Shown here in pieces: positions 13,997 through 28,705 of a stretch of 64,000 nucleotides of DNA; position 1 is the stretch's first letter, and each line of letters starts with the position of its first letter. The notes beneath the pieces were generated by a model, which worked only from the letters and a program-made list of their open reading frames with translations, ran no database searches and was not told the DNA's origin. The translations under genes and the position numbers were made by a program. Source of the DNA: a virus; IMG/VR virus record IMGVR_UViG_3300034284_003265, positions 1 to 64,000 of that record; one strand, 5' to 3'.

Positions 13997-14043
13997 AAAA
14001 AGCTGTTGACTTTCTCCTCAACTCTGATATTCTATTTACACAA

Positions 14044-14196
14044 TGAACGTTGACTTCAGCACGATTGATCCCCAGAACGAACTGTCTGACCTCTACACTC
14101 CCGACTATCGGGAACAGGCTCCCAACGAGGATGCCTATTTGGACCAGGCCTACGAGGACCGATTTGAATGTGCTTGTATGGCCGACTACCAGTAAT
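14044..14196 (+). CDS. small acidic protein (50 aa, not in ORF track)
   Basis: acacaATG behind a promoter; DAYLDQAYEDRFE. Confidence 0.65.
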
Positions 14197-14240
14197 TTGT
14201 TCGGGGTAATACAATAACTTTAACTAACACTAACACTACT

Positions 14241-14753
14241 ATGGCTATTAAAAAGAACGACATCGTTACCAATAACAAAGATATCCGCGTTGGTTCACCC
14301 TCTAACCCTCTTGTTATTCCTGCTGGTACTCAACTCCGTGTATGGAAAGCTACTCGTCGTGGCACTCTCTTCTGCAACGCTGTTGATCGTATTCTCTCCT
14401 ATTACACCGTCAATGCATATGCAACTGATGTCACTAAGGTTGAACAACCCAAACCCAATGTCAATGTAGGCGACATCTTTGTGTGTAGTTGGGGTTATGA
14501 CCAAACCAATATCGACTACTACATGGTTACCAATGTAAAGAACAAGACCGTCAACCTCGTTAGTATCGGTCAGAAGCGCAACTACACCGGACCTATGCAA
14601 GGCGAGTGTGTGCCTGATACTAGTGTTGTTGGCAACAAGATCTACACCAAGCGCATGATCAACGATGGTAATAGTGTCAGTTTCAAAATGACCAGTTACA
14701 GCTGGGCTTACAAGTGGAATGGTAAAACCAACTGCTTCACTGAGTGGGCTTGA
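14241..14753 (+). CDS. conserved phage hypothetical protein
   Basis: VGDIFVCSWGYDQTNIDYY motif. Confidence 0.8.
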   Translation: MAIKKNDIVTNNKDIRVGSPSNPLVIPAGTQLRVWKATRRGTLFCNAVDRILSYYTVNAYATDVTKVEQPKPNVNVGDIFVCSWGYDQTNIDYYMVTNVKNKTVNLVSIGQKRNYTGPMQGECVPDTSVVGNKIYTKRMINDGNSVSFKMTSYSWAYKWNGKTNCFTEWA

Positions 14754-15123
14754 TAGGGTAGCTGGGTAGGGGGCTATGTCACTTTTAGCCTATTTATAAA
14801 CTTGACGGGGTAGGGGGTATAGCTCCCTACCTCTTTTTATTATAATAGGGGGGAGGGGGTATGGGGTACCCTACCGAAGATGGTTCTGAACATGAGAGGC
14901 TGCGCGCGGTACCCCGCGCGGGGATACGCACAGCACACATTGAGGTTTTTTACTTGGGAAAAAGCACATATGAACATTTGTTTAGTGTGCTTGGGGGTAG
15001 TTATAAAAAGTGGGGATAAAAGGGTGTTTTTGGAGGGTATTTTTTGGGTTTTTTTGAGAAGATGTGAAAAAAACAGGGGGAGTATTTTTTTGTTGGGGGA
15101 ATTTATATATGTTGACGTTGATA

Positions 15124-16014
15124 TTAATTATCGTAGTATATTTTGCAGGAGTGTAGACTTTCCATATTTGGATATTTAGTTAATAAATTTTGTAGATCTT
15201 GTTTGGTTTTTATGTCTGGTAATGTTGATATACAATTTGAATTTACTTTCCAACTAAACGAGAAAATTCCGCATATAATTGATACTATTTCCCATGGTTC
15301 ATAATATAATAGATTCCTTTGATTATTATAATATAGTAGATGATTGGATGGTTTATATTTTTCTGTTAAGTTTATTATTTGTTGTATTAGGTATACAACG
15401 TCTTTTTTTCTGTCGATGAAAGTTGAGTGAATTTTTTTTGTTTTGACAATTGAATTTGCACCAAAGCATGTTCTCATGTCATTTTTTGCGGCTGTGTCTA
15501 GATCTATATTAATTTTTTTGCAAACGTCATTTAAGTCACTATAGAATTTTCGAAAATTTTCGAGACGTATTGTATCATTTTCTCCTAATTTCATCCATGT
15601 ATTTAAAAATAACCATGTTACTTTAAGATCTGAGAGATTATCTGGACAATATATGTCTATGTTATTTTTGTTATAAGAATTGTCTATTGTTTTAAAGAAC
15701 ATTGAATCTGGTTCGGCTAATATAAAATAATTTGTATCTATAATAGAACATGGTTTTACGAATATATTATAAATCCAGTCTATGATATCGTTTATTTCAT
15801 CTTTGGTAAAAATAGGATATTTATATTTTTTATTTGGTGTATAAGTTATGATGTTTAAGTTTTGGCATAAATTTTGATATTCAGGTAACTGTTGTACATT
15901 TACTGCTATTACATTTTGATTGTTATATAGCATATAATCTGAAATGCTTTTTTCTATGGATTTTATATGATTTGTTGTGCCTCCTAAAGATAACAATGTT
16001 AAATCGTCGTTCAT
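15124..16014 (-). CDS. hypothetical protein (possibly glycosyltransferase-like)
   Basis: 296-aa AT-rich ORF with ILAEPD acidic motif. Confidence 0.55.
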   Translation of the reverse strand: MNDDLTLLSLGGTTNHIKSIEKSISDYMLYNNQNVIAVNVQQLPEYQNLCQNLNIITYTPNKKYKYPIFTKDEINDIIDWIYNIFVKPCSIIDTNYFILAEPDSMFFKTIDNSYNKNNIDIYCPDNLSDLKVTWLFLNTWMKLGENDTIRLENFRKFYSDLNDVCKKINIDLDTAAKNDMRTCFGANSIVKTKKIHSTFIDRKKDVVYLIQQIINLTEKYKPSNHLLYYNNQRNLLYYEPWEIVSIICGIFSFSWKVNSNCISTLPDIKTKQDLQNLLTKYPNMESLHSCKIYYDN

Positions 16015-16093
16015 GTATAATTTAACAATATCTATATAATTGTTAAATTATTAATTTTTTATAATGTTTTAATTTGTATGTATTATAAAATAT

Positions 16094-16243
16094 ATGTTAT
16101 CGTTGAATGAAAGTCAGTTGATGTTATTGGGTTGGGTGATTACAATAGGCAGCAGCATTATTGTGATGGGGTTGACGTTATTGATGATGTATTGTATATA
16201 TAGTTTATATAGAATTGTAAAGAATTTTAGCAATAAAAATTGA
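16094..16243 (+). CDS. small membrane protein (49 aa)
   Basis: MLSLNESQLMLLGWVITIGSSIIVMGLTLLMMYC... hydrophobic helix. Confidence 0.5.
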   Translation: MLSLNESQLMLLGWVITIGSSIIVMGLTLLMMYCIYSLYRIVKNFSNKN

Positions 16244-16276
16244 TATTTGTATATATTGATGATATATATTAACGTA

Positions 16277-16360
16277 ATGAGAGTACATTATACAAATATT
16301 AAACGTTGGAATACCTTTACAAATTGTGAAGATAGAGGTATGGCGGCTGATATTGTGTAA
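16277..16360 (+). CDS. attenuator leader peptide 1 (MRVHYTNIKRWNTFTNCEDRGMAADIV)
   Basis: short ORF whose 3' end is the 5' strand of an antiterminator; codons match tRNA array 1. Confidence 0.8.
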   Translation: MRVHYTNIKRWNTFTNCEDRGMAADIV

Positions 16361-16424
16361 ATGTAGATCTAAAACCCAAACAATATCAACCGTCACCAAA
16401 AAAAGTGACGGTTTTTTTATTTTT
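16341..16424 (+). promoter_or_regulatory. attenuator 1: antiterminator 16341-16356/16380-16395, mutually exclusive with terminator 16388-16424
   Basis: TGGCGGCTGATATTGT pairs with ACAATATCAACCGTCA (15/16); terminator AACCGTCAC/GTGACGGTT + T tract. Confidence 0.85.
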
Positions 16425-16428
16425 GGTG

Positions 16429-16547
16429 TTGACGTTCTTTGGATGTGTGGTAAAGTAATTAAACAGTGAACGAAGTAAGTAGTTCATTAAATGATGAAAA
16501 AGAAATTTTAAAAGTCAGTTGACAACAGTGAAAGCTGTGATAGACTG
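16429..16547 (+). promoter_or_regulatory. two sigma70-type promoters upstream of tRNA array 1
   Basis: TTGACG..TAAAGT and TTGACA..TAGACT. Confidence 0.7.
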
Positions 16548-16651
16548 AGTGAAGAGTAAGGAAGGTTTGAAACTCCATCTGTTGAACCTCCTCCAGTGAA
16601 CCGAGTAATCGGCGATAAGGTAAAGTCTGGGAAAATCAATTGATTGGTCCG

Positions 16652-16679
16652 TGGGTGTTATGCTGAAATACAGAACCCA
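16652..16679 (+). repeat. 28-nt element identical to 24600-24627, in the leader of tRNA array 1
   Basis: TGGGTGTTATGCTGAAATACAGAACCCA. Confidence 0.95.
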
Positions 16680-16740
16680 TAGGGCGATGACAGTATTACT
16701 GAGGTGATTACTGTGAATGTTGAAGTAAAGAAAATTTAAC

Positions 16741-16822
16741 GCCGTTGTGAGTTGAGTGGTTGAAAACACCAGTTTTGTAAACTGGAAAATCATCGCAGGT
16801 TCGAATCCTGTCAACGGCTCCA
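16741..16822 (+). tRNA. tRNA-Thr(UGU)
   Basis: cloverleaf, CCAGT-TT TGT AA-ACTGG, TCCA end. Confidence 0.9.
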
Positions 16823-16834
16823 GATTATAGTAAT

Positions 16835-16910
16835 GGTGATATTGGTGTAACAGTTAGCACCTGAGTTTGTGAAACTCAAGGAACGAGGGCAGCACTCGTA
16901 TATCACCCCA
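16835..16910 (+). tRNA. tRNA-His(GUG)
   Basis: G-1 present, TT GTG AA loop, atypical T-loop GGCAGCA, CCCA end. Confidence 0.85.
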
Positions 16911-16918
16911 ATTTTAAT

Positions 16919-16994
16919 TACCCTATCGTCTAGGTTTAGGACGGATGTGTTCTCTGAGACATCAACCTTGGTGAAAATCCAAGTGGGGTAACCA
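16919..16994 (+). tRNA. atypical tRNA-Gln(CUG)/Glu(CUC)-like gene with a 10-nt anticodon loop
   Basis: TACCCTA/TGGGGTA ACCA; GATGT-GTTCTCTGAG-ACATC. Confidence 0.55.
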
Positions 16995-17000
16995 ATTTAT

Positions 17001-17078
17001 GCTTCGGTGGTGAAAATGGATTTATCACGCAACGCTACGAACGTTGAGTTTGGGGTTCGAATCCTCACTGAAGCGCCA
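17001..17078 (+). tRNA. tRNA-Arg(ACG)
   Basis: CAACG-CT ACG AA-CGTTG, GCCA. Confidence 0.9.
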
Positions 17079-17089
17079 ATTTACATAAT

Positions 17090-17166
17090 GGCCTCATCGT
17101 CTAATGGCAAAGGACGGTAGACTTTCAATCTACAAATCGTGGGTTCAATTCCCCGTGGGGCTACCA
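17090..17166 (+). tRNA. tRNA-Glu(UUC)
   Basis: GTAGA-CT TTC AA-TCTAC, ACCA. Confidence 0.9.
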
Positions 17167-17174
17167 TTTTAAAA

Positions 17175-17260
17175 GTGACGAGGGCAACAAAGAGACTTAA
17201 ACCCAAAAGATTGAAGGAGCCCTGCATGCCGGGTAATTCCTACTGGGGTAATCTCGTCAC
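17175..17260 (+). ncRNA. stem-closed non-tRNA RNA
   Basis: GTGACGAG/CTCGTCAC termini. Confidence 0.55.
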
Positions 17261-17270
17261 AATATTTAAC

Positions 17271-17347
17271 GGTCGCATCGTCTATGTGTGATAGGACACC
17301 ATCCTCTCAAGATGGAGAATAGGGTTCAAATCCCAATGCGACTACCA
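17271..17347 (+). tRNA. tRNA-Glu(CUC)
   Basis: CCATC-CT CTC AA-GATGG, ACCA. Confidence 0.9.
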
Positions 17348-17357
17348 TTTATAGTAT

Positions 17358-17435
17358 ATCCGCCAATGTTCCAAGGATTAGGCGACAGGCTCTCCAAAAG
17401 CCCGTGGGTAAGTTCGATTCTTACGGTGGATGCCA
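17358..17435 (+). tRNA. tRNA-Trp(CCA)
   Basis: GGCT-CT CCA AA-AGCC, GCCA. Confidence 0.85.
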
Positions 17436-17442
17436 TTTTTCA

Positions 17443-17556
17443 AATACATTAGGTGAAGGCAACGAACGTAGCTTAACTGGTAAAGCAACCGCACGAATAA
17501 GCGGGAGTCATTCAGTTCGAATCTGAATCAATAGTTGAAGTAGTAAGTAATGTATT
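17443..17556 (+). ncRNA. tRNA-like core inside an extended interrupted stem
   Basis: D-arm TAGCTTAACTGGTAAAGC, T-arm TTCAG-TTCGAAT-CTGAA, outer stem AATACATTA/TAATGTATT. Confidence 0.6.
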
Positions 17557-17647
17557 GACACTGATAGACATTGAAGGTTATAATCTGACGAGGTTATAAT
17601 TAGTAGGTGGAACAAGCATAGTGAAATCCAGTAAACATTTTTTTAAT

Positions 17648-17721
17648 TCTCGGATCGTATAATAGTATTACCTTCGGTTGTTACCCGAATGATAAGGGTG
17701 CGATTCCTTTTCCGAGAGCCA
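17648..17721 (+). tRNA. tRNA-Asn(GUU)
   Basis: TTCGG-TT GTT AC-CCGAA, GCCA. Confidence 0.9.
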
Positions 17722-17729
17722 TTTTCAAT

Positions 17730-17855
17730 TCCAGAGTAGCTCAATGGTAGAGCATTCGGCTGTGGGCCATAAAGTATTATTTAATAGAGAGTGCAAATCT
17801 CATAAGGCCAAAGTTAACCGAAATGTTGAAGGTTCGAGCCCTTCCTCTGGAGCCA
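17730..17855 (+). tRNA. tRNA-Asn(GUU) with a 51-nt insertion in the anticodon loop
   Basis: canonical body; removing 17762-17812 restores TTCGG-CT GTT AA-CCGAA. Confidence 0.75.
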
Positions 17856-17860
17856 TTTTC

Positions 17861-17965
17861 AAGTGGGACTAGTAATTGATAAAAAACAAATCAGATAGAT
17901 AAGCAAGTTCGAAATTGTTTGACCCGTGTGAAATCCTGATGTAAGTTTAGATGAAAGTCCCTTTT
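17861..17965 (+). ncRNA. stem-closed non-tRNA RNA
   Basis: GGGACT/AGTCCC termini, ATCAG/CTGAT inner helix. Confidence 0.45.
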
Positions 17966-17972
17966 AATTTTT

Positions 17973-18089
17973 TATATGATGTATGGAGTATGCTGATTAA
18001 GGGTTAGGCAGTTGATCAAATTGCAATAGTATGAACATAAAGTGCCTTAAGAGATTTAAATAATTTCATTGTTCATCATACATTATATA
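17973..18089 (+). ncRNA. stem-closed non-tRNA RNA
   Basis: ATATGATGTATG-like 5' end pairs with CATACATTATAT; inner TTAAGGG/CCTTAA. Confidence 0.5.
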
Positions 18090-18095
18090 TTTTTT

Positions 18096-18182
18096 GGGAG
18101 TATCGCATAGCAGCAATTGCAAGAGACTGTAAATCTCTCGGCCGAAAGGCCTACGTAGGTGCAAGTCCTACTGCTCCCACCA
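18096..18182 (+). tRNA. tRNA-Tyr(GUA)
   Basis: AGAGA-CT GTA AA-TCTCT, long variable arm, ACCA. Confidence 0.9.
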
Positions 18183-18187
18183 TTTTT

Positions 18188-18275
18188 GGGTTATTATACT
18201 ACTAAAGACGTAGCTCTGACTGTAAATCAGAAGGCCATAGTGCCTGGGTAGGAGCATTACCTACATAACCCACCA
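18188..18275 (+). tRNA. tRNA-Tyr(GUA)
   Basis: TCTGA-CT GTA AA-TCAGA, T-loop AGCATTA, ACCA. Confidence 0.85.
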
Positions 18276-18280
18276 TTTTT

Positions 18281-18430
18281 ATTCGGTGTCAGCAGGCTCA
18301 CGATGCTGAAGAAAGAGTTGATAATTGCAAGTATCAATGTCGTGGAGAGTGAGTGGGTTGATCTATACAAGATATCGTGCTATAGGTCGTAATGATGTCT
18401 GTTAAACATTCCCGTAAACCAACATCGAAT
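18281..18430 (+). ncRNA. stem-closed non-tRNA RNA
   Basis: ATTCGGTGT/ACATCGAAT termini; CACGAT/GTCGTG inner helix. Confidence 0.5.
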
Positions 18431-18435
18431 TGTTT

Positions 18436-18516
18436 TTGACAGGTGCTAGTGCGCATGGCGTGGTAAAGGAGCGGGCGACTCTGTTCCGAGAAGGTTCGAT
18501 TCCTTTGACTTGTCAA
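18436..18516 (+). ncRNA. tRNA-like RNA with a T-arm but no canonical anticodon arm
   Basis: TTGACAGGT/ACTTGTCAA, GAAGG-TTCGATT-CCTTT. Confidence 0.55.
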
Positions 18517-18528
18517 TTTATTTTTAAT

Positions 18529-18604
18529 CCCAGTTAAGCTAACCTAGTGAAAGCGCAAGTCTGAAGAACTTGAGAGGTTGGGGCGGAACCAACAACTGGG
18601 ACCA
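18529..18604 (+). tRNA. tRNA-Phe(GAA)
   Basis: CAAGT-CT GAA GA-ACTTG, T-loop GGCGGAA, ACCA. Confidence 0.85.
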
Positions 18605-18620
18605 TTTTTTAAGAAAGATG

Positions 18621-18648
18621 TTGACGGAACTATAAAGTGTGGTAAGAT
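18621..18648 (+). promoter_or_regulatory. internal sigma70-type promoter
   Basis: TTGACG-16-TAAGAT with extended TG. Confidence 0.65.
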
Positions 18649-18690
18649 GATTATAGTTCGTTGACAATGTAAGATGAAATTTTTAATAAT

Positions 18691-18769
18691 GGAAGTGAAG
18701 CTACAATAGACGGGCATCTGACTCTTAATCAGAATATTCGTGTGGGGGCAGTACCCACCACTTCCACCA
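18691..18769 (+). tRNA. tRNA-Lys(CUU)
   Basis: TCTGA-CT CTT AA-TCAGA, T-loop GGCAGTA. Confidence 0.85.
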
Positions 18770-18772
18770 ATT

Positions 18773-18886
18773 TTGAGTGGCGTATGAAAGATTCAATCGG
18801 TTCCATAAGGATTTAAAGAAGATATTCTTTTTTTCCGGGTATAAAAAATCCGTAATGGTCTCATAACTACGAGATATCCCGCTCAA
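18773..18886 (+). ncRNA. stem-closed non-tRNA RNA
   Basis: TTGAGTGG/CCGCTCAA termini; GGATTT/AAATCC inner helix. Confidence 0.5.
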
Positions 18887-18896
18887 GTTAATTTAT

Positions 18897-18974
18897 GGAT
18901 CGGTAACTCAACTGGATTAGAGTATTCGGCTCTTACCCGAAAGGTTGTGGGTTCAAATCCCACCCGGTCCACCA
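18897..18974 (+). tRNA. tRNA-Lys(CUU)
   Basis: TTCGG-CT CTT AC-CCGAA, ACCA. Confidence 0.9.
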
Positions 18975-19068
18975 TTTTGTAAGTCTAGCGGTAACTCGTA
19001 ACCGATATTTGCCGGGGTTGAAATCCTAGGGATTAAAGAGTGACAGAGGGAAAGACCCACCAATTTAT

Positions 19069-19147
19069 GGAGTCAAAGCCACAATAGACGGGCAGCCGGC
19101 TTTTAACCGGACGATTCGTGTGGGAGCATTACCCACTGGCTCCACCA
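19069..19147 (+). tRNA. tRNA-Lys(UUU)
   Basis: CCGG-CT TTT AA-CCGG, T-loop AGCATTA. Confidence 0.85.
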
Positions 19148-19485
19148 ATTTAATGGGTAACTGACCCCATAAGTGACTGCCGACCGGTACAATCGGTAAA
19201 ACACAGAGACGGCGTGGAGAGCACAGCACCAATTTTTGTTATTTGACAAAGCTAGTCAAGAAGGTTTGTATTGGGTCGCTCCTGATACTATTTCCTTGAA
19301 GATAGATACGAATATAGTTTAAGAGAAGAACGCCGGCGTGTGCTGGAGGCTTGAGGTGCAATTCCTCAATGAGTGTAGAACGTAATTTTACGTGAAATCC
19401 TTTAAAAAATCCAATTTCGTTATGTGTTTGATATAATATTCACGGTGTGAAAAGCTTCCGTGGCAAAAAATCAAATACATAATAT

Positions 19486-19564
19486 GGGGGTATAGTGTAA
19501 TTGGCTAACATCGCACACTGTCACTGTGCAGACTTGCTCGGTTCGAATCCGGCTACCCTCGCCA
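19486..19564 (+). tRNA. tRNA-Asp(GUC)
   Basis: GCACA-CT GTC AC-TGTGC, GCCA. Confidence 0.9.
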
Positions 19565-19571
19565 TTTCAAT

Positions 19572-19645
19572 TGGCTATTAGCTCAATAGTAGAGCATTCG
19601 GCTGATAACCGAAAGAACACGGGGCGGTACCGTGATAGCCAACCA
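19572..19645 (+). tRNA. tRNA-Ile(GAU)
   Basis: TTCGG-CT GAT AA-CCGAA, T-loop GGCGGTA. Confidence 0.88.
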
Positions 19646-19652
19646 TTTTAAC

Positions 19653-19729
19653 GCACTCGTAGCTCAATTGGATAGAGCAACTCGTTTCTACCGAGAAGGT
19701 TGCAGGTTCAAGTCCTGCCGGGTGTGCCA
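19653..19729 (+). tRNA. tRNA-Arg(UCU)
   Basis: CTCG-TT TCT AC-CGAG, GCCA. Confidence 0.9.
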
Positions 19730-19734
19730 TTTTT

Positions 19735-19808
19735 GCCTTCATAGTATAAAAGTATTACACATCATTGGTAATGATGAAACGCAGGGGCGGTACCTGCTGG
19801 AGGCTCCA
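19735..19808 (+). tRNA. tRNA-Thr(GGU)
   Basis: CATCA-TT GGT AA-TGATG, T-loop GGCGGTA, TCCA. Confidence 0.88.
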
Positions 19809-19861
19809 TATTAAAAATATATTTAGAAGTGTGGGGATTATATATATAGTAAAATAAATTT

Positions 19862-20665
19862 ATGGAATCTACAAACGCTCCCCAAACATTTTCGTTTACT
19901 AATAAAAAGGTATTATATGCAATAATTGCTGTAATTGTATTGGTAATTTTTGGATTATACACATTATTTAGTTCATTGAATAGAGATAATAAAGCTTTAA
20001 CTAAGAAGGTTGTTAATCAGACTGAGATTGTTGTAAATCAAAGTTTATTAATTACCAATTTAAATCAAAAGAATGTGGAATTGGCGACGTTATTGAAGAG
20101 TTATGACAATAAATTGAGTATATTGCATACTAATTTAACTCAGTTACAAAGTATTACCGAGAAGTTAAAAGTATCATCTGATGAAAAGGATGTGAAGATT
20201 AAAGATTTGTCTCAAGAAAAAACTGCGCTTGAATCTGATTTAAAGTCTTTGCGTAATACGCTTACAAAAATGACTAAAGAGATCGTAGATTTGAGTGATG
20301 AACTTAAAGTTGCTAAGACTGACAAAGATCAAAATGATCTTGTAGCTAAGATTGAAGAGCTTACGAAAGAAAGAGATTTTTTGAAGAACAAGATTGCTGA
20401 GTATGAAAAGATCATAGAAGAATTGAAGAAAGAAAATGCACTTTTGGCTCAAAATTTGCGACAAAATCTGAAAAAAGATGGATATGAATTTCACAACAAA
20501 TTGGGAGAGTGGCCAAAAGGTGCAGAAGTGTTGATGAGGATTGCTAAGCAAAATGCACAAAAGATTTTAGATGAAGTTAACAAAACTGATGAGCCAAAAG
20601 AAGAAGAAAAACCTAAAAAAGTAGGTTTTTGGAAGCGTATTTTTGGTTCGGGTGAAACTGAATGA
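19862..20665 (+). CDS. membrane-anchored coiled-coil protein
   Basis: N-terminal TM helix, long heptad region, C-terminal amphipathic GFWKRIFG. Confidence 0.8.
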   Translation: MESTNAPQTFSFTNKKVLYAIIAVIVLVIFGLYTLFSSLNRDNKALTKKVVNQTEIVVNQSLLITNLNQKNVELATLLKSYDNKLSILHTNLTQLQSITEKLKVSSDEKDVKIKDLSQEKTALESDLKSLRNTLTKMTKEIVDLSDELKVAKTDKDQNDLVAKIEELTKERDFLKNKIAEYEKIIEELKKENALLAQNLRQNLKKDGYEFHNKLGEWPKGAEVLMRIAKQNAQKILDEVNKTDEPKEEEKPKKVGFWKRIFGSGETE

Positions 20666-20671
20666 TTTAAT

Positions 20672-20745
20672 GCCTGTTTAGTTTAGTGGTAAAACGGTTG
20701 TTTCGTAAACAACGATCACAGGTTCGATTCCAGTAACAGGCTCCA
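20672..20745 (+). tRNA. tRNA-Thr(CGU)
   Basis: GTTGT-TT CGT AA-ACAAC, TCCA. Confidence 0.9.
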
Positions 20746-20752
20746 TATTAGT

Positions 20753-20827
20753 GTCTCGTTGGTCGAGTAGTTAGGCAGCTGTCTGCAAAACAGCATTAGG
20801 TTGGTGCAAATCCAACACGGGACTCCA
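20753..20827 (+). tRNA. tRNA-Cys(GCA)
   Basis: GCTGT-CT GCA AA-ACAGC, TCCA. Confidence 0.9.
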
Positions 20828-20844
20828 TTTTTTATATATTTATT

Positions 20845-21321
20845 ATGTATATGATATTATTGAGAAATTTACTCTCTGAGGCGCCTATTGGGTTAACAGT
20901 ATATAGAGGGGTTAATCCAGCTTATGGAGATGTAGGTTTGGGTATCAATAGTACCAAGATAGGTGATAAATTAGTTGCGACATTGGGGCCTAATCATACT
21001 GATAATTTAGATGTTGCTAAGCGATTTGGCAAACAGATAATAACTACTAAATTAAATGGATCTGGATTGGAATTGGCTCATTATAATGATATAATTAATT
21101 TATATAAGCAGTATGAAAATATGTTACCGCCTGGTCTTGCAAAACAAATCAAATATAGTAGTGGACAAGAACAATTGAATCTAATACAATTAGCTGGTAA
21201 AGAATTGCGTAATATATTGAGTAAGAAATATGGATATATCAAGAGTCCGCTAGCGGTGAGTGATGCTAATTATTTAAGTCAAAAAGGATTAACAGGAGAT
21301 TTGTATATACCGTTGAGATAA
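20845..21321 (+). CDS. hypothetical protein, possibly ADP-ribosyltransferase fold
   Basis: LRNLLSE leader; VYRG...HTDNLDVAKRF pattern. Confidence 0.5.
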   Translation: MYMILLRNLLSEAPIGLTVYRGVNPAYGDVGLGINSTKIGDKLVATLGPNHTDNLDVAKRFGKQIITTKLNGSGLELAHYNDIINLYKQYENMLPPGLAKQIKYSSGQEQLNLIQLAGKELRNILSKKYGYIKSPLAVSDANYLSQKGLTGDLYIPLR

Positions 21322-21340
21322 TCAAACTACTTATTTAGGT

Positions 21341-21514
21341 ATGGAAAGATCTAATCTCTATCAAAAGTTTTTGCAGTTAAAAAATGAAATAGAAAAACAC
21401 AAATGGATAGAGAGTGAGAAAAAAGGTAATGATATAGGTTTTGAGCGAGCATTAGTTGATTGGATGTCTAAACATAGAAATGGTTGGTGTGAGAATATAA
21501 AGCAGAATAAATAA
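21341..21514 (+). CDS. DUF4032-like small protein (57 aa, not in ORF track)
   Basis: EIEKHKWIESEKKGNDIGFERALVDW motif. Confidence 0.7.
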   Translation: MERSNLYQKFLQLKNEIEKHKWIESEKKGNDIGFERALVDWMSKHRNGWCENIKQNK

Positions 21515-21534
21515 AATTAATATATTTATAATAT

Positions 21535-21963
21535 ATGACCAAATCCGATTTTAAAAAAATTATAAAAGAATTGATGCTAGAAGTACTTTCCGAAGATTAT
21601 AAAGGTGAACCAAATCACGCAGCAGAAGTAGAAAGTGATAAATTAACCGCAACTCTTTCTGAAGATGACACCATTAAAGACATTAAGGATTTAGAGAAGT
21701 TGTTGAAGAACCCGGATCCAAGTAGAGTAAAAGATTATGGTTCTATTGATAAGTATAAAAAAATGTTAATAGCTAAAATTGCTAGATTAAAGAAACAAAA
21801 AAATGAAAGTGGCGATCCTTTTAGAGACATTGTGAAAAAGTATGCTAGTCTTTATAGAGATAGTGAATTATCCCGTAGAGAGAAGGAAGATTATTTTAAA
21901 TGGTTGCAAACAAATCAGCCTGAAAAATTCAAAAAGGTTGTAGATAAGATTAAAAAGAAGTAA
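21535..21963 (+). CDS. hypothetical (possible head-internal) protein
   Basis: KKIIKELMLEVLSE N-terminus; charged. Confidence 0.7.
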   Translation: MTKSDFKKIIKELMLEVLSEDYKGEPNHAAEVESDKLTATLSEDDTIKDIKDLEKLLKNPDPSRVKDYGSIDKYKKMLIAKIARLKKQKNESGDPFRDIVKKYASLYRDSELSRREKEDYFKWLQTNQPEKFKKVVDKIKKK

Positions 21964-22066
21964 AAATATAGGTTTAAATTTAAACAAGTGAAACGATTAA
22001 TGTAAAAATTAATCGTTTTATTTTTTATTGACAATCGACCGTTAACAAGTATAATAAAAGTATAGT

Positions 22067-22390
22067 ATGAATGAATTAAGTAAAATTGATATGGCGAATT
22101 TAGTCTTTAGTGAAGACAAAAAGATTAAAATCAAAAATGTATTATGTGATAAGTATGGTGCGACTGACGTTCAATATAGAGACCTATCATATGGTATTTG
22201 TATTGATGTAGTTGGAACTGACAGTTTTAGATTTGTCAAGAATGCCATAATGAAAACATTGGACGTTCATGAAGAAACGTTATCTGTTTTGGGCGAAAGT
22301 AAGAGAAGCATGAAAGCTTCTTATGTTTATTTGCCTGAAAAAGATAAAGCATTGAACAAACGTCTTAAAAAGTTAAAGACTACAGTCTAA
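22067..22390 (+). CDS. hypothetical protein
   Basis: behind a consensus TTGACA..TATAAT promoter. Confidence 0.7.
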   Translation: MNELSKIDMANLVFSEDKKIKIKNVLCDKYGATDVQYRDLSYGICIDVVGTDSFRFVKNAIMKTLDVHEETLSVLGESKRSMKASYVYLPEKDKALNKRLKKLKTTV

Positions 22391-22537
22391 AAATAATAAG
22401 TTATAATATTATTATAATAACTATATATAAATTAAATAATCAATTTCGAAAGGTGCATTTTTGACTTTTCGGATAACGTTAAGCTGTTCTTAACGTCGTT
22501 AGTAAACATAAACAAACAAAATAAAGGATAGTTAAAT

Positions 22538-23248
22538 ATGAAGAAAGTATTAGTATTATTGTCAGTATTGGCCGCTCTAGCAGTATCAGCTGGCGACAAC
22601 TCAAACCTCTCAGTAGAAGCTGGGTACAACAACCAATACATCGTAAATGGTGTAGCTCGTTCCGAGGGATCAGCATTTGTTGGTGTAGGTGCTGTAAAGA
22701 GTTTAAAGTATGCGGATGTATACTTGGGTGGTACTCTATTGGCTAATGGTGATCAAGATCAATCACACTGGACGTTGGGTGCTGGTAAGGAAGTTAGTGT
22801 ATGGAAGGATGTATTTTCTGCCCGTGCTGACGCTACTGTAACTCGCCATCAAGCTGGTAGTTTTGGTATTCCAAACAGTACTGAATTTGGTGTTAAGTTG
22901 GCTCTACCAAACAAGTTGGCAACTCCATATGTACGTGGTGCATTTGACATTGACCTAGACCAAAAGGGTGCATTCGTTGGTTTGGAACGTGCTCAAAAGT
23001 TGCCATTTGGTTTTGTAATTACTCCCGCTGTTGAATACGGTAAGGTATTTGGCGTATCGAGTGATTATACAGCTGTAAATGCTAAGGCATCATTGACTCG
23101 TCCATTCGAAACTTCATTTGGTGTATTGACTCCATTTGCTACTGTTGGATGGTATGATAATAATTTCAAGGTTGGCAATTATAATTGGGCAACCCGTGAA
23201 TTTAGTGGAGATGTAGTATATTCTGGTGGTTTGAGATTAACCTTCTAA
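22538..23248 (+). CDS. outer-membrane beta-barrel protein (TIGR02001-like)
   Basis: signal peptide, YNNQYIVNG motif, alternating strands, C-terminal GLRLTF. Confidence 0.75.
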   Translation: MKKVLVLLSVLAALAVSAGDNSNLSVEAGYNNQYIVNGVARSEGSAFVGVGAVKSLKYADVYLGGTLLANGDQDQSHWTLGAGKEVSVWKDVFSARADATVTRHQAGSFGIPNSTEFGVKLALPNKLATPYVRGAFDIDLDQKGAFVGLERAQKLPFGFVITPAVEYGKVFGVSSDYTAVNAKASLTRPFETSFGVLTPFATVGWYDNNFKVGNYNWATREFSGDVVYSGGLRLTF

Positions 23249-23272
23249 TCTAAACCAGAATAGTGTATGATG

Positions 23273-23300
23273 ACCCGCTTAGAAATAAGCGGGTTTTTTT
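23273..23300 (+). terminator. intrinsic terminator
   Basis: ACCCGCTTA/TAAGCGGGT + T tract. Confidence 0.85.
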
Positions 23301-23339
23301 ATTTTAATAGTCTATTTATAATTAAAGAAAGGTTTATTT

Positions 23340-24293
23340 ATGTCATCAACAAGTGGATCAAGTGGTAGTAGCGGAATAGGCACTTCCTCATTAAAAACAA
23401 TAGTTCTTCAATCGAAATCTGTAGTAACTAAATTTATATCTAATATATTGGTACCAAAAGTGATACATAGTACGGCAGTTGGTAGTAGTGGAATAGGTGG
23501 CAGTAGTGGATCTTCTGATAGTGTACGTACTAATTGGATATCGAATATTAAATCCACACTGATAAAAATGATGGTAGCCAGCAAAGACCGTAGTTTATTC
23601 AGTGCATTTATCCAATCTACTTTTTCTTGGGTTCGAAATCCTGCTTCTTGGGTGACATCTTATAAATGGACAGGTACTGCTGCTGGTATAAATGGACTTG
23701 GTGGTGTTGGAGGTGGAACTCTTATTACTAGCAAGCATGTCTTATTGTCTGCACACGTTCCTTATTTGCCAAATTCAGAAATCTTTTTTGTTAACGATAA
23801 CAATGTGACTTTCAAATACAACATCATCAAGATCGACAAGATTGATGGAAGTGATATTGCAATTGGAACGCTTGATCGATCAATTGATAGTAGTCTTAAG
23901 ATATATTCAGTATTACCAGACAACTGGCAACAATATATCAAAACTGAAATTAATAGTGTGATGGGGGTACAATTCATAACTTTACGGTTACCTGTGTTGT
24001 TCCTCAATCAAGACAAAAAAGTTTCAATTGGAGATATGACACGATTGATTGATGCAGTTGCTGATGTAGAATCTTCAGTATTTGGTACATCACAATCGTA
24101 TTATGAAACACAAAGAGTTGGTGATTCTGGAAATCCAATATTTGTGCAGGTAGGCAGTGAACTGGTACTGTTGGGTGCGTGGTATAAAGTTGGATCTTTT
24201 GCTTGGGTAATCAGTAGAAAAACTCAAATTGAGTCTATTATTGGTCAAAAACTGAACGTAATTAATATGACTGGATTTGAGAAGGTATCCTGA
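23340..24293 (+). CDS. trypsin-like serine protease
   Basis: GGTLITSKHVLLSAH, DIAIG, GDSGNP catalytic-triad motifs. Confidence 0.85.
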   Translation: MSSTSGSSGSSGIGTSSLKTIVLQSKSVVTKFISNILVPKVIHSTAVGSSGIGGSSGSSDSVRTNWISNIKSTLIKMMVASKDRSLFSAFIQSTFSWVRNPASWVTSYKWTGTAAGINGLGGVGGGTLITSKHVLLSAHVPYLPNSEIFFVNDNNVTFKYNIIKIDKIDGSDIAIGTLDRSIDSSLKIYSVLPDNWQQYIKTEINSVMGVQFITLRLPVLFLNQDKKVSIGDMTRLIDAVADVESSVFGTSQSYYETQRVGDSGNPIFVQVGSELVLLGAWYKVGSFAWVISRKTQIESIIGQKLNVINMTGFEKVS

Positions 24294-24333
24294 AAGTTAA
24301 TGAAGTTTATTTGAAAATTATTTAATAATTTTG

Positions 24334-24362
24334 TTGATTTTGAATTTCAAACACTATATATT
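24334..24362 (+). promoter_or_regulatory. promoter of leader 2
   Basis: TTGATT-17-TATATT, ATG 9 nt later. Confidence 0.6.
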
Positions 24363-24371
24363 ATTACGAAT

Positions 24372-24425
24372 ATGAATTTAATTTCACAACCTAGTCAAGC
24401 CAGTCAACTCCCATCCGGAAGTTGA
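24372..24425 (+). CDS. attenuator leader peptide 2 (MNLISQPSQASQLPSGS)
   Basis: stop codon overlaps the antiterminator strand; codons match tRNA array 2. Confidence 0.8.
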   Translation: MNLISQPSQASQLPSGS

Positions 24426-24495
24426 GTGAGAGGTTGTTTGCTATAAAGATCCAACCCGTCACTCTACGAAAAAAGAATGACGGGTTTTTGATTTT
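24424..24495 (+). promoter_or_regulatory. attenuator 2: antiterminator GAGTGA-GA-GGTTG/CAACC-CG-TCACTC versus terminator AACCCGTCA/TGACGGGTT + T tract
   Basis: mutually exclusive hairpins sharing 24453-24460. Confidence 0.8.
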
Positions 24496-24500
24496 AGTGG

Positions 24501-24528
24501 TTGACAATTTGAGAAGGTATGGTAAATT
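24501..24528 (+). promoter_or_regulatory. sigma70-type promoter upstream of tRNA array 2
   Basis: TTGACA-16-TAAATT with extended TG. Confidence 0.65.
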
Positions 24529-24599
24529 AGAAATATAACGAACGGGGTTGAAACTCTATCTGATGTCCCCAACGAAAGTTAAAACATTTGATCGGTCAC

Positions 24600-24627
24600 T
24601 GGGTGTTATGCTGAAATACAGAACCCA
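24600..24627 (+). repeat. 28-nt element identical to 16652-16679, in the leader of tRNA array 2
   Basis: TGGGTGTTATGCTGAAATACAGAACCCA. Confidence 0.95.
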
Positions 24628-24668
24628 ACTGGCGATAATTAAAATAAGTTAAATAACAATTTTTAAAT

Positions 24669-24743
24669 GGGCGGTTAGCTCAGTGGAAGAGCAGGACCTT
24701 TACACGGTCAAGGCCAGAGGTTCAAATCCTTTACCGCCTACCA
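24669..24743 (+). tRNA. tRNA-Val(UAC)
   Basis: GACC-TT TAC AC-GGTC, ACCA. Confidence 0.9.
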
Positions 24744-24750
24744 TTTTAAT

Positions 24751-24824
24751 CGGTCACAAGTGTTACGGTAGCATACGTGCTTTGGGAGCATGGGGAGACA
24801 GTTCAATTCTGTCGTGGCCGACCA
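24751..24824 (+). tRNA. tRNA-Pro(UGG)
   Basis: CGTGC-TT TGG GA-GCATG, C1-G72, ACCA. Confidence 0.9.
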
Positions 24825-24831
24825 TTTTATT

Positions 24832-24916
24832 GGGCATATGATGTAATTGGCAGCCATGCGAGTCTTAGAAGCTCGTGGAGAAATCCGTGGGGGTTCAAGT
24901 CCCTCTATGCCCACCA
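24832..24916 (+). tRNA. tRNA-Leu(UAG)
   Basis: CGAGT-CT TAG AA-GCTCG, long variable arm. Confidence 0.9.
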
Positions 24917-24924
24917 ATTTAAAT

Positions 24925-25002
24925 GGTTACGTAGACCAACTGGAAGGAGTCGTCTATCTCAAAAATAGAATAGTGCTGGTTCGAATCCAGTCGTAACTAC
25001 CA
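24925..25002 (+). tRNA. tRNA-Leu(CAA), short variable arm
   Basis: TCTAT-CT CAA AA-ATAGA, ACCA. Confidence 0.85.
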
Positions 25003-25010
25003 ATTTCAAT

Positions 25011-25095
25011 GGGTGTGTGGATGAGGGAAACTGGCACAACCGCAATACTTAAGATATTGTATCCTATGTAGGTTCGAATCCTACCACACCTACCA
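25011..25095 (+). tRNA. tRNA-Leu(UAA)
   Basis: CAATA-CT TAA GA-TATTG, enlarged D region, ACCA. Confidence 0.8.
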
Positions 25096-25104
25096 ATTTT
25101 ATAT

Positions 25105-25197
25105 GGATGATAGGCAGATATAAGCTGGCTGCACTAGTCTTGAAAACTAGGTCCGTCTAAAAAACGGAGGTCCGGGCAGTACGGACATCATCCGCCA
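25105..25197 (+). tRNA. tRNA-Ser(UGA)
   Basis: CTAGT-CT TGA AA-ACTAG, long variable arm, T-loop GGCAGTA, GCCA. Confidence 0.88.
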
Positions 25198-25281
25198 TTT
25201 TAATACAACTCCACTTGACAATGGAACCGAAGACTGATAATATCGTCTCTTGAAGAAATCGGAGTTTGTCAAAAGATTTAT

Positions 25282-25374
25282 GGAGGTGACGTAGATAGTC
25301 AGGTTTCTACAGCAGTTTGCTAAACTGCCGTGGTCTAAAAGCCACTGAGGGGGCAGCACCCTTCGCCTCCGCCA
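25282..25374 (+). tRNA. tRNA-Ser(GCU)
   Basis: GCAGT-TT GCT AA-ACTGC, long variable arm, T-loop GGCAGCA. Confidence 0.88.
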
Positions 25375-25377
25375 TTT

Positions 25378-25451
25378 GCGGGTATAGCTTAGTGGTAAAG
25401 CGCCAGTCTTCCAAACTGGCAAGGTGAGTTCGATTCTCACTACCCGCTCCA
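25378..25451 (+). tRNA. tRNA-Gly(UCC)
   Basis: CCAGT-CT TCC AA-ACTGG, GCG...TCCA. Confidence 0.92.
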
Positions 25452-25458
25452 ATTTAAC

Positions 25459-25532
25459 TGGGGATTTGCATAATGGTAGTGCGGCAGACTTTGAATCTGC
25501 TTGTGGTGGTTCGATTCCATCATCCCCAACCA
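25459..25532 (+). tRNA. tRNA-Gln(UUG)
   Basis: GCAGA-CT TTG AA-TCTGC, U1-A72. Confidence 0.92.
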
Positions 25533-25539
25533 ATTTAAT

Positions 25540-25615
25540 CGGAATGTAATGTCAATAGTAGACGGCCTGGTTTGGAGCTAGGAGGTTGCAGGTGCGAGTC
25601 CTGTCATTCCGACCA
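25540..25615 (+). tRNA. tRNA-Pro(UGG)
   Basis: CCTGG-TT TGG AG-CTAGG, ACCA; A37. Confidence 0.85.
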
Positions 25616-25622
25616 TTTTATA

Positions 25623-25738
25623 TATCAGACAACGGTAGAGGTTTGAACTTGGCTAGGTCCGAAACAATAACCAACGGCTGTGTTCGGCTAATAATCTGTG
25701 GGTTAAATATGCCCATAAAACCGCCAAGGTGTCTGGTA
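25623..25738 (+). ncRNA. stem-closed non-tRNA RNA
   Basis: TATCAGACA/TGTCTGGTA termini. Confidence 0.5.
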
Positions 25739-25792
25739 ATTTTTTGTTTTTTGATTTGACTTATACTATATATTGGTGTAAGATTTTTAAAT

Positions 25793-25867
25793 GGGCTGTT
25801 AGTGATAGTGGTAGCACGGGAGCTTTGCAAGCTTTAGGGAAGAGTTCGATTCTCTTACGGTCCACCA
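25793..25867 (+). tRNA. tRNA-Ala(UGC)
   Basis: TT TGC AA loop, G3:U70, ACCA. Confidence 0.9.
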
Positions 25868-25919
25868 TTTTAAATTAATGTATGTTGGTTAGTTTCAACT
25901 ATATATTAATGTTGAGATC

Positions 25920-25993
25920 GCGGGTATGATGTAGTGGTAGCCTGCAACCTTGCCAAGGTCGATGTGCCGGTTCGATTCCGGCTACCCGCTCCA
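25920..25993 (+). tRNA. tRNA-Gly(GCC)
   Basis: ACC-TT GCC AA-GGT, GCG...TCCA. Confidence 0.9.
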
Positions 25994-26008
25994 ATTTTAT
26001 AATGTGTT

Positions 26009-26809
26009 ATGTATAAAGGCAAAAAAGTTATATTGACTACAACTGCTTGTAAAAGAATTAATTTATTAAAAGCAGCCATTAAAAGTTTTGGAATTTTTTG
26101 TACAGATAAACACGTAATAGATGAAATTCATTATTATGATGATTCTTCAACACCAGAAGAACGTAATATTGCGATGGAATATTACAAGAAACATATTCCA
26201 GATAAATTGATTAGTTTTAGATTTTTTGAGAAAGAATCTTTTCCGGATAATTATAGACATGCTAGAGTGTTAAATTATTGGAGACAGGGAATTATTAACT
26301 CAAACGCGGAGTATGTATTTCACTTAGAAGATGACCATCAATTCTATAATATGTTTACAATAGGCGATCCTATTGATATTATGGAAGAAAATCAAGAATA
26401 TGGATATATTGGATATTGTCAGAGTTGGAAAAATTTTCCAAAAGATATGTATCCTAAAAAAATAATAGGAAAGTTTTGGGAAACTGTTTACTTTGATAAT
26501 AAACCTATTAATGACCTTTTATTTTTAGACGATGTTATGGCGATGCACACTGGATTAGATTGGTGGATGTATTATATTAACTGGCCATATTTTTCATTGA
26601 GACCGGGAGTACATGATGTTAAAAAGTTATTGTCAGTTGGCGAGTTTTCTACAACATATGATCGTGAAAAAATGAGTGTAGAATTAGAATTTGCAATACG
26701 CTGGAAAAATATGGGATATAAGAGTATGATGTCAAAAATATTTACATCTTTACATACAGGCCAAAATCCAGAATTAAGTGCGTATAAAATTAATAATTCA
26801 GCTAGATGA
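26009..26809 (+). CDS. GT-A fold (family 2-like) glycosyltransferase
   Basis: TTACKR...YDDSS...FHLEDD motifs. Confidence 0.75.
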   Translation: MYKGKKVILTTTACKRINLLKAAIKSFGIFCTDKHVIDEIHYYDDSSTPEERNIAMEYYKKHIPDKLISFRFFEKESFPDNYRHARVLNYWRQGIINSNAEYVFHLEDDHQFYNMFTIGDPIDIMEENQEYGYIGYCQSWKNFPKDMYPKKIIGKFWETVYFDNKPINDLLFLDDVMAMHTGLDWWMYYINWPYFSLRPGVHDVKKLLSVGEFSTTYDREKMSVELEFAIRWKNMGYKSMMSKIFTSLHTGQNPELSAYKINNSAR

Positions 26810-27423
26810 AAGATAATATAGATCCTAAAAAATTAGTGGATTATTGTGTTAACTCTGAGTTAATGCATAAGTGCATATTTATGCAAGTGTATGAAGAGTT
26901 TTTAACCTTTTCATATTGGTTAAAAGGTTTTCAGCCAAATAATATTCTTGAAATAGGTACTATGGGTAGTACTTTTTGGATAATGAATAAACTATCTTCT
27001 GGGAAAAAAGTTTCTATAGACATAGAAAATAGAGAATCTATAATACATCATTTTATGTGGGAAGAAGATTGGATGTTTGTCGCTGGATCATCCCAAGATC
27101 CAAACAATTTTGATAAAATAAAAAATAAATGTGACAAGTATGATCTAATTTTTATAGATGGTGATCATAGCTACGATGGAGTTAAAAATGATTTTAATTT
27201 GTACAAAAGTCTTTTATCAGACCGTGGTTATATAGCATTTCACGATATCGATCCAAATCATATATTTGCTGGATCTTATGCTGGAGAAGTTTATAAATTC
27301 TGGCAAGATTTAGACGAAGGGTCCAAAATTAATTTGACATGTACCAAGTCTTCTGGTAAAGTAAAACTAAATGGAATATATTCACATGGATTTGGTGGAA
27401 TAGGTCTTTGGACTCCAAATTGA
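26806..27423 (+). CDS. class I SAM-dependent methyltransferase (Methyltransf_24-like)
   Basis: ILEIGT, DLIFIDGDHSYDGV, IAFHD. Confidence 0.85.
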   Translation: MKDNIDPKKLVDYCVNSELMHKCIFMQVYEEFLTFSYWLKGFQPNNILEIGTMGSTFWIMNKLSSGKKVSIDIENRESIIHHFMWEEDWMFVAGSSQDPNNFDKIKNKCDKYDLIFIDGDHSYDGVKNDFNLYKSLLSDRGYIAFHDIDPNHIFAGSYAGEVYKFWQDLDEGSKINLTCTKSSGKVKLNGIYSHGFGGIGLWTPN

Positions 27424-27453
27424 TATTTATAATTAGTTCTTTTAAAATTTTAT

Positions 27454-27838: not shown

Positions 27839-27840
27839 TT

Positions 27841-28056: not shown

Positions 28057-28081
28057 TAAGTATAAGTATATTTATACAGTA

Positions 28082-28674: not shown

Positions 28675-28677
28675 AAC

Positions 28678-28705
28678 AAAACCCGGTCTTTCGACCGGGT
28701 TTTTT
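28678..28705. terminator. bidirectional terminator
   Basis: AAAACCCGGTC-TTTC-GACCGGGTTTTT between convergent genes. Confidence 0.9.

Follow-up and report, generated by a model that had tools for sequence, protein, structure and literature searches.

Putative leader-peptide attenuators ahead of the two tRNA gene arrays of a freshwater phage

Why phages carry tRNA genes, and how these genes are deployed, is a long-standing question. Excerpts of three reports describe phage tRNA sets as a counter-measure to host defences that target tRNAs (PMC10264068; PMC11555353; PMC12409363), which gives a phage a biological reason to monitor and replenish its tRNA pools. In the phage DNA analysed here a short open reading frame (ORF) with its own promoter and terminator lies ahead of a long array of tRNA genes, and its codons read like a list of the amino acids that the array serves. 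The locus thus raises the question of whether the supply of tRNAs is sensed by translation of this ORF and whether the outcome is passed on to the genes behind it. A sequence-only reading of the same DNA had taken the unit for a transcription attenuator; that reading is supported, and every in-silico test that it proposed (among them folding under the constraint of a ribosome footprint and a search of related phages for a Val gene in the array) came out in its favour.

The phage and its tRNA arrays

The window, by which we mean the whole stretch of 64,000 nucleotides analysed, covers the opening 64 kb of an IMG/VR record of 91 kb, which has a CheckV completeness of 31%. T4-like baseplate-wedge and tail-fibre proteins are encoded in the record (PHROGs), and on these grounds it looks like a fragment, probably of a myovirus of roughly 300 kb. 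Related contigs were sampled from lake, freshwater and river. A megablast search of the GenBank phage collection returned no close relatives, no viral relatives of one flanking protein were found, and Pfam and PHROGs gave no useful annotation for the ORFs that adjoin the leader. Two tRNA arrays and one tmRNA gene lie on the plus strand of the window:

16741-20827, + strand: tRNA array 1, which codes for T, H, R, E, W, N, Y, F, K, D, I and C
24669-25993, + strand: tRNA array 2, which codes for V, P, L, S, G, Q and A
27454-27838, + strand: tmRNA (Rfam, 113 bits), with a 20-residue tag peptide that ends in ALAA

Several of the tRNA genes are aberrant and had to be identified with relaxed ARAGORN settings, with Rfam or by hand. 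Default ARAGORN settings recover Thr-UGU, Arg-ACG, Glu-UUC, Glu-CUC, Trp, Asn, Tyr, Lys-CUU, Asp, Ile-GAU, Arg-UCU, Thr-CGU and Cys from array 1; relaxed settings add Phe-GAA (18529), Lys-UUU (19069) and Thr-GGU (19735), the last of which is also scored by Rfam (47.5 bits). His-GUG (about 16836-16911), a gene with an atypical T-loop, was seen only in a custom scan for anticodon stems, and its orthologue is called as tRNA-His in relatives. Taken together, the ARAGORN calls, Rfam and the anticodon-stem scan bear out the list of array-1 tRNAs drawn up in the sequence-only reading. Array 1 also holds some aberrant tRNA genes and one ORF of 267 aa. In array 2 of the window, Ser-UGA and Ser-GCU were read by hand. 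The split of the amino acids between the two arrays is identical across relatives, and array 2 carries only V, P, L, S, G, Q and A tRNAs in all relatives examined. The tmRNA gene, too, is kept in relatives.

A short ORF that lists the amino acids of array 1

The unit upstream of array 1 begins with the following two features:

16240-16270, + strand: leader promoter, with a -35 element TTGATA (16240-16245), a 17-nt spacer and the -10 block TATATATT (16263-16270)
16277-16360, + strand: leader ORF 1, with an ATG at 16277, 27 sense codons and a TAA at 16358-16360

Re-reading of this ORF reproduced exactly the codons that had been listed before. Under standard wobble, 18 of the 19 codons from 2 to 20 can be read by tRNAs of array 1, as had been claimed, and for GTA at codon 3, the lone exception, the one matching tRNA is Val-UAC, whose gene opens array 2. 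All 12 amino acids of array 1 are present within codons 2-20, plus the one Val; each is sampled one to three times, and among them are the three rarest residues of the proteome (W 0.8%, C 0.9%, H 1.0%). From codon 4 the array-1 codons run without a break to codon 20, and codon 21 is the next one outside the set after Val 3.

Under a null model of phage codon usage, the probability that at least 18 of 19 codons fall in the set is 3e-4 and the probability that all 12 amino acids are covered is 8.5e-6; both properties jointly were met with in 0 of 2 million codon-usage draws (chance <5e-7). Among the 713 ATG-started open 20-codon stretches in the six frames of the window, that of leader 1 is unique in covering all 12. 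Dinucleotide shuffling of the 57 bases gave 7241 open sequences, none of which had both properties, and base composition therefore fails to explain the content of leader 1. When leaders 1 and 2 (for the latter see below) were compared as whole ORFs, with no choice of sub-window, the Fisher test gave p = 2.8e-5. The match in composition between leader 1 and array 1 is confirmed to be far beyond chance.

As regards the Val exception, the sequence-only reading had suggested looking for a tRNA-Val in array 1 of relatives. Such genes (Val-UAC or Val-GAC) were found in the related contigs L032, L041, L089 and L100, in each case between Ile-GAU and Arg-UCU of array 1, hence the exception of the window looks like the trace of a lost or relocated gene. 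The phage of the window has probably lost the Val gene from its array 1, to judge by these four relatives.

Conservation of leader 1 in related phages

Leader variants were collected by pattern scans of IMG/VR and by a DNA search of five related records, which yielded 13 distinct leader-1 variants as well as seven short leader-2 variants and one long form of leader 2 (L015). Across the leader-1 and leader-2 variants all frames are open, indels are in frame and the stop codon is located 42-55 nt ahead of the U-tract. An ORF broken where the hairpins are kept, which the sequence-only reading had named as evidence against an attenuator, was not encountered among the leader-1 variants, the frame being open in 13 of 13. 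The length differences inside the leader-1 ORF consist of two different 6-nt deletions and one 6-nt insertion. Variable columns number 7, 3 and 6 at codon positions 1, 2 and 3, which is the direction expected of a coding sequence, at numbers too small to carry weight.

After removal of the Met and of six tail codons from each of the 13 variants, 243 sensing codons remain. Of these, 221 (91%) fall in the array-1 set, where about 56% would be expected. The six tail codons are in the set in about 40% of cases (2-4 of 6 per variant). All 12 amino acids are retained in 9 of the 13 variants; the reordered variants L044 and L100 still comprise all 12, and L121, the third reordered one, is without Glu only. 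Coverage is often restored elsewhere in the ORF: variants with K or Q in place of H4 have H in place of N7, and those with D in place of N12 have C in place of D19. In most variants codon 3 is an invariant Val, spelled GTA, GTC or GTT. The sequence-only reading had placed the match at the level of isoacceptors, and this holds in the window but breaks down in relatives, with exchanges such as GTA/GTC/GTT, CGT/CGC and ACC/ACA. The conserved property of leader 1, as judged from the aligned variants, is the set of amino acids and not the isoacceptors.

The leader does not follow the array in every relative. The leaders of L065 and L110 have no Cys codon, yet tRNA-Cys is still present in the L110 array. 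Several arrays have apparently lost tRNAs that are still sampled by their leader, absences that are unreliable because both ARAGORN and Rfam miss aberrant tRNAs in these arrays. The leader of L124 is without R and E codons, and neither Arg nor Glu tRNA was detected in its short array, nor were those for D, K, H and F.

Alternative RNA structures of the leader

The RNA of the leader comprises four segments, numbered 1 to 4 from the 5' end, with an additional hairpin inside the ORF:

16280-16307, + strand: region 1 (codons 2-11), predicted to pair with region 2 as an anti-antiterminator
16311-16341, + strand: apical hairpin in the ORF, present in the minimum-energy fold and marked by a compensatory change
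16341-16370, + strand: region 2, made up of the ORF end, the stop codon and about 10 nt beyond, in which 16342-16356 is the 5' strand of the antiterminator
16380-16396, + strand: region 3, the alternative partner of region 2 (antiterminator) or of region 4 (terminator)
16388-16424, + strand: intrinsic terminator, a 9-bp stem (16388-16396/16405-16413) followed by T7-A-T5

The full leader has a minimum energy of -38.3 kcal/mol (z = -4.8) and folds into a long 1:2 hairpin, the apical hairpin and the terminator; of the 13 full-length leaders that were folded, 12 have 1:2, apical hairpin and 3:4 as their fold of lowest energy (z from -3.0 to -6.3). For an RNA ended before region 4, folding gives the 2:3 antiterminator as the structure of lowest energy. 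The antiterminator proposed in the sequence-only reading was recovered as 16342-16356 with 16380-16394, and its hairpin at 16311-16341 is present in the computed fold, where it is possibly a pause hairpin for RNA polymerase. The 1:2 pairing of codons 2-11 with the end of the ORF, as predicted by folding, is new here.

These helices were examined for conservation by counting pairs on a 15-sequence alignment, with slid partners as controls. In the terminating fold 82% of the cells are paired, versus 27-48% in the controls, and 12 pairs are changed on both sides; for the 2:3 antiterminator the values are 88% versus 32-60%, with three pairs changed on both sides. The terminator stem is paired in 98.5% of cells across relatives and has two compensatory pairs. 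A compensatory change from C-G to A-U joins the third base of codon 13 with the first base of codon 19, which shows RNA and coding constraints to be interwoven in this ORF.

The position of the ribosome was brought in by a footprint model, in which the ribosome covers the RNA as far as 14 nt beyond the first base of the P-site codon, and folding is confined to the RNA 3' of the footprint, ended before region 4. In this model the GGCGG:CCGUC extension of 2:3 forms only with an A-site codon of 19 or lower; it is lost from A-site codon 20 on and is masked when the ribosome is at the end of the ORF. The model is therefore in line with the earlier claim that a ribosome finishing the ORF would cover the antiterminator strand. 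The sensing limit that it sets, codon 19, compares with codon 21 as the first outsider, and in relatives with a 6-nt deletion the footprint boundary and the boundary in composition shift together. The extra G and Q codons of the L121 leader are located partly within region 2.

Full-length equilibrium folding with a ribosome mask was also tried. This equilibrium model lets region 1 re-pair across a ribosome positioned downstream of it, and it takes the terminator to a probability of less than 0.9 only at P-site codons 8-12; no clean switch resulted, and the co-transcriptional model was used instead. On the full-length RNA at equilibrium, a 9-bp antiterminator core and an 8-bp terminator stem can coexist. 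No more than 6-7 nt of the terminator arm are sequestered by 2:3, and only its 5-6 bp extension competes with the terminator. This implies that the switch must be kinetic, like that of many riboswitches.

A second cassette ahead of array 2

A sister cassette occupies the same position before array 2 as leader 1 does before array 1:

24372-24425, + strand: leader ORF 2, 17 codons, 14 of the 16 after Met specifying array-2 amino acids
24453-24495, + strand: terminator of the putative attenuator 2, the whole 5' arm of which can pair alternatively with 24424-24436

The residues of leader 2 match the set of array 2 (V, P, L, S, G, Q, A) to an extent reached by only 2 of 37669 shuffles, and the layout of attenuator 2 is that of attenuator 1. 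In the short leader-2 variants, 12-15 of the 16-17 residues are drawn from the array-2 set. In L015 (and in the partial L014) leader 2 forms the end of a longer ORF, with 66 codons and an ordinary composition, which in L015 has the same promoter start as leader 2 and ends at the same stop codon and terminator. Cassette 2 is absent from L017, L052, L082, L095 and L133. These five carry a terminator, a promoter, a tRNA-Val gene and an ORF of about 60 codons before the structured element (see below) and array 2.

Initiation, downstream promoters and transcripts

In relatives the leader promoter reads TTGAYR, 17 nt and TATATATT; both blocks are kept and the spacer varies. The ATG follows the -10 block after 5-9 nt in all variants, which in the window places it at about +1 to +3 from the predicted start site, and the mRNA of leader 1 consequently looks leaderless or nearly leaderless. 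Leader 1 is without a Shine-Dalgarno motif. Only 7 of the 37 long ORFs of the window have a Shine-Dalgarno-like motif, so that the missing motif is no argument against the translation of leader 1. Many of the long ORFs begin a few bases after TATATA-type motifs, which suggests that 5' UTRs may be short or absent genome-wide in this phage.

Between the first terminator and array 1 there are further elements, the second of which recurs ahead of array 2:

16429-16456 and 16519-16546, + strand: two sigma-70-like promoters with an extended -10, 3' of the terminator
16561-16700 and 24543-24640, + strand: structured RNA element ahead of the first tRNA of both arrays

Each terminator is followed by one or two promoters of a strong sigma-70-like type (TTGACA, 16-17 nt, TGnTAnnnT) in every relative, with hexamers that are kept and spacers that vary. 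The conservation of promoters in this place implies that the attenuator is not the only control of the array, to which read-through would only add.

The structured element is situated between the array promoters and the first tRNA and matches no Rfam family. About 28 distinct true variants of it were found in IMG/VR, in which paired bases clearly covary (as in GGGG..CCCC to GGGC..GCCC, and CTGGGT..ACCCA to ATCGGT..ACCGAT). It also has the deepest cover by metatranscriptome contigs in the region, up to 130 versus 2-9 over the leader. Contigs from two lake and river metatranscriptome studies lie inside the leader, extend across the terminator and reach into the leader of the array; one of them starts by an adapter, 16 nt into the ORF, and reaches the pre-tRNA element. 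The contigs that cross the terminator are a weak hint of transcription through it, as such contigs may be DNA carry-over and prove no ends; nor do uncovered stretches of the region carry any meaning.

Proposed mechanism and alternative explanations

We propose that the unit is a ribosome-mediated transcription attenuator of the trp type, in which a leaderless ORF of 27 codons is a roster of the array-1 amino acids, a reading that we hold to be probable rather than secure. Five of the six sequence-level hallmarks of leader-peptide attenuators were found at the locus, namely a conserved short ORF, enrichment of the sensed codons, an intrinsic terminator, an antiterminator that a ribosome masks, and a 1:2 pairing that involves the sensing codons; the sixth, dependence of the array on read-through from the leader promoter, was not. 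The ORF, its composition and conservation, the alternative helices and their geometry are established in silico, and it is from this point on that we infer translation, the start site, the response to stalling and any effect on tRNA levels.

Transcription would start at about 16275-16277, and a ribosome would load on the 5'-terminal AUG. With all array-1 aminoacyl-tRNAs plentiful, the ribosome would keep pace with the polymerase and reach codons 21-27 and the stop codon, where it would cover region 2 (16341-16370); 3:4 would then pair and transcription would terminate at the U-tract (16414-16424). If any of the 12 tRNA species were scarce, the ribosome would stall with its A site in codons 2-19, and region 1 would be occupied or parted from region 2. 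Region 2, left free, would pair with the emerging region 3 and sequester the base of the terminator stem, allowing read-through into array 1. Were the ORF not translated, 1:2 and 3:4 would form and transcription would end. The sister cassette (24372-24495) would exert the same control on array 2. The two cassettes would probably add an inducible component to the output of the constitutive promoters 3' of each terminator, and the loss or cleavage of host tRNAs during infection is a likely trigger. A wider proposal, on which we find ourselves evenly divided, is that paired roster leader peptides of giant phages from lakes and rivers serve as a tRNA-pool sensor for each array, each leader probing by a single round of translation every tRNA species of its array, and switch on replacement tRNAs after host tRNA degradation or cleavage by defence nucleases, with product feedback on tRNA genes and leaderless initiation.

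Several observations count against a simple attenuator: the downstream promoters, the dominance of the terminator at equilibrium, the imperfect co-variation of leader and array, the long leader-2 ORF of L014 and L015, and the L017-type phages that do without cassette 2. Single codons, moreover, are weaker stall sites than the runs of classical leaders. The two ORFs might be translated and report the tRNA supply, while the output is something other than read-through into the arrays. A ribosome, stalled or not, might govern the stability, processing or amount of the terminated leader RNA (about 140 nt) or of the peptide, or read-through might act on the downstream promoters by occlusion, the arrays being driven by promoters of their own. 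The conserved promoters directly 3' of both terminators and the thermodynamic dominance of the terminator on full-length RNA would fit such an output, and the composition match and the conservation of the ORF demand translation and leave the output unspecified. We nevertheless consider this rather unlikely: the 2:3 helix, which is conserved and carries compensatory changes, shares bases with the lower part of the terminator stem, and the position of the stop codon is such that region 2 would be masked by a ribosome terminating there. These are two hallmarks of read-through control that would otherwise be unexplained, and no sRNA or peptide target is known.

Somewhat less likely again, in our judgement, is an independent small gene that happens to adjoin the array, either for a micropeptide of 25-28 residues or for a structured small RNA, whose likeness to the array would be a by-product of a hydrophilic and aromatic peptide combined with RNA constraints. 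The self-contained unit of promoter, ORF and terminator with separate promoters after it, the strongly structured RNA (z about -5), several conservative substitutions (N/D, N/H, H/Q/K) and the tie of the codon 13 and 19 changes to an RNA pair would all suit a small gene. What it leaves unexplained is a second, unrelated ORF before array 2 with the complementary set of amino acids; in addition, the rare W, C and H are each still present once in reordered variants, the composition switches at the predicted footprint boundary, and base composition was controlled by the shuffles. Very improbable, finally, is a plain terminator together with an open frame that arose by chance, the terminator shielding the tRNA promoters from transcription that arrives from upstream. 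The arrangement of terminator and then promoter is common in phage genomes and other terminators are present in the window, but the frame is open in 13 of 13 variants with indels in frame, chance is excluded at <1e-6, and the upstream gene is on the other strand, so that there is little to insulate against at 16388. The trp-type attenuator is the reading that we compare with known systems below.

Comparison with known systems

Multivalent attenuators of enterobacteria include the thr leader (Thr, Ile) and the ilvGMEDA leader (Ile, Leu, Val), besides which trpL, hisL, pheL and pheM, the leader of pheST, are classical examples. The phage cassette resembles these leaders in its short ORF (the translation of which is inferred here), in its four segments that pair as 1:2 plus 3:4 or as 2:3, and in its intrinsic terminator, as well as in a stop codon that lets the terminating ribosome mask segment 2 and in regulatory codons that lie upstream of it. 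The differences concern both the target and the sensing. Whereas biosynthetic enzymes or a synthetase are encoded behind the enterobacterial leaders, here it is tRNA genes, and the sensed molecules would be the operon's own products. The enterobacterial leaders sample one to three amino acids in runs, while the phage leader samples 12, each one to three times. Unlike them, the phage cassette has an mRNA that looks leaderless and is followed by independent promoters after the terminator, and it is one of a phage-borne pair that splits 19 amino acids over two arrays.

A T-box riboswitch binds one uncharged tRNA directly through its specifier codon and does not need translation. The likeness to it lies in a terminator/antiterminator switch that responds to tRNA status. 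A T-box was considered for the present locus and rejected, as Rfam gave no match at E values up to 10 over 16400-20900 or up to 1 over 14000-30000; other cis-regulatory families of Rfam likewise had no match over these two intervals.

The nearest published case is the trn operon of Anabaena sp. PCC 7120, a long array of accessory tRNA genes that, according to excerpts of two reports, is induced when translation is impaired (PMC8421152; PMC10272220). That array is controlled by TrcR, a protein repressor that binds the promoter (PMC10272220), and the main text of this paper does not contain 'leader peptide' or words beginning with 'attenuat'. The two systems are therefore alike in their accessory tRNA genes and differ in the protein repressor as the means of control. 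For phage tRNA sets, 'leader', 'promoter', 'terminator' and words beginning with 'attenuat' are absent from the main text of PMC10264068. Our full-text literature searches found no case of leader-peptide or attenuator control of tRNA genes in phages or bacteria. Leader-peptide attenuation itself is a known mechanism; tRNA genes as its target are something for which we found no published account.

If the proposed reading is true, tRNA genes are a new class of attenuation target and are governed by a new sensing logic: the reach of leader-peptide attenuation would widen to RNA genes, leaderless mRNAs and the sensing of 12 amino acids. Phage tRNA sets would then be regulated supplies instead of constitutive cargo, and would be tied to the depletion of host tRNAs and to tRNA-cleaving defence systems. 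At about 150 nt the cassettes are small and suited to reporter and cell-free work, and they could serve as tools that read out tRNA availability.

Other tRNA-like and RNA genes of the region

Some further RNA genes were noted in and near array 1. A tRNA-like gene with an anticodon loop of 8 nt (CUCU) and a CCA end is located at 16919-16994 and occupies the same place in many relatives. The quadruplet AGAG occurs twice in leader 1 (16280-16283 and 16334-16337), which could be a coincidence or could be a test of this 8-nt-loop tRNA. The sequence at 17462-17536 is weakly tRNA-like (Rfam, 23.7 bits), with an anticodon loop of apparently 8 nt as judged by eye, and may be a decayed or an unusual tRNA. 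At 17730-17852 there is a tRNA-Asn(GUU)-like gene (Rfam, 56.7 bits) whose anticodon loop is enlarged by an insert of about 51 nt; this 123-nt form recurs in L035, L110 and L089.

Comparison of the tRNA-His bodies of the window (16836-16911), L032 (3227-3301) and L110 (4079-4156), which are close relatives, revealed differences in nearly every stem, with changes that compensate each other, between flanks that are identical. This points to a fast diversification of phage tRNA bodies. Lastly, the tRNA region of the related contig L100 harbours a GOLLD RNA on the minus strand (2703-3165; Rfam, 212 bits).
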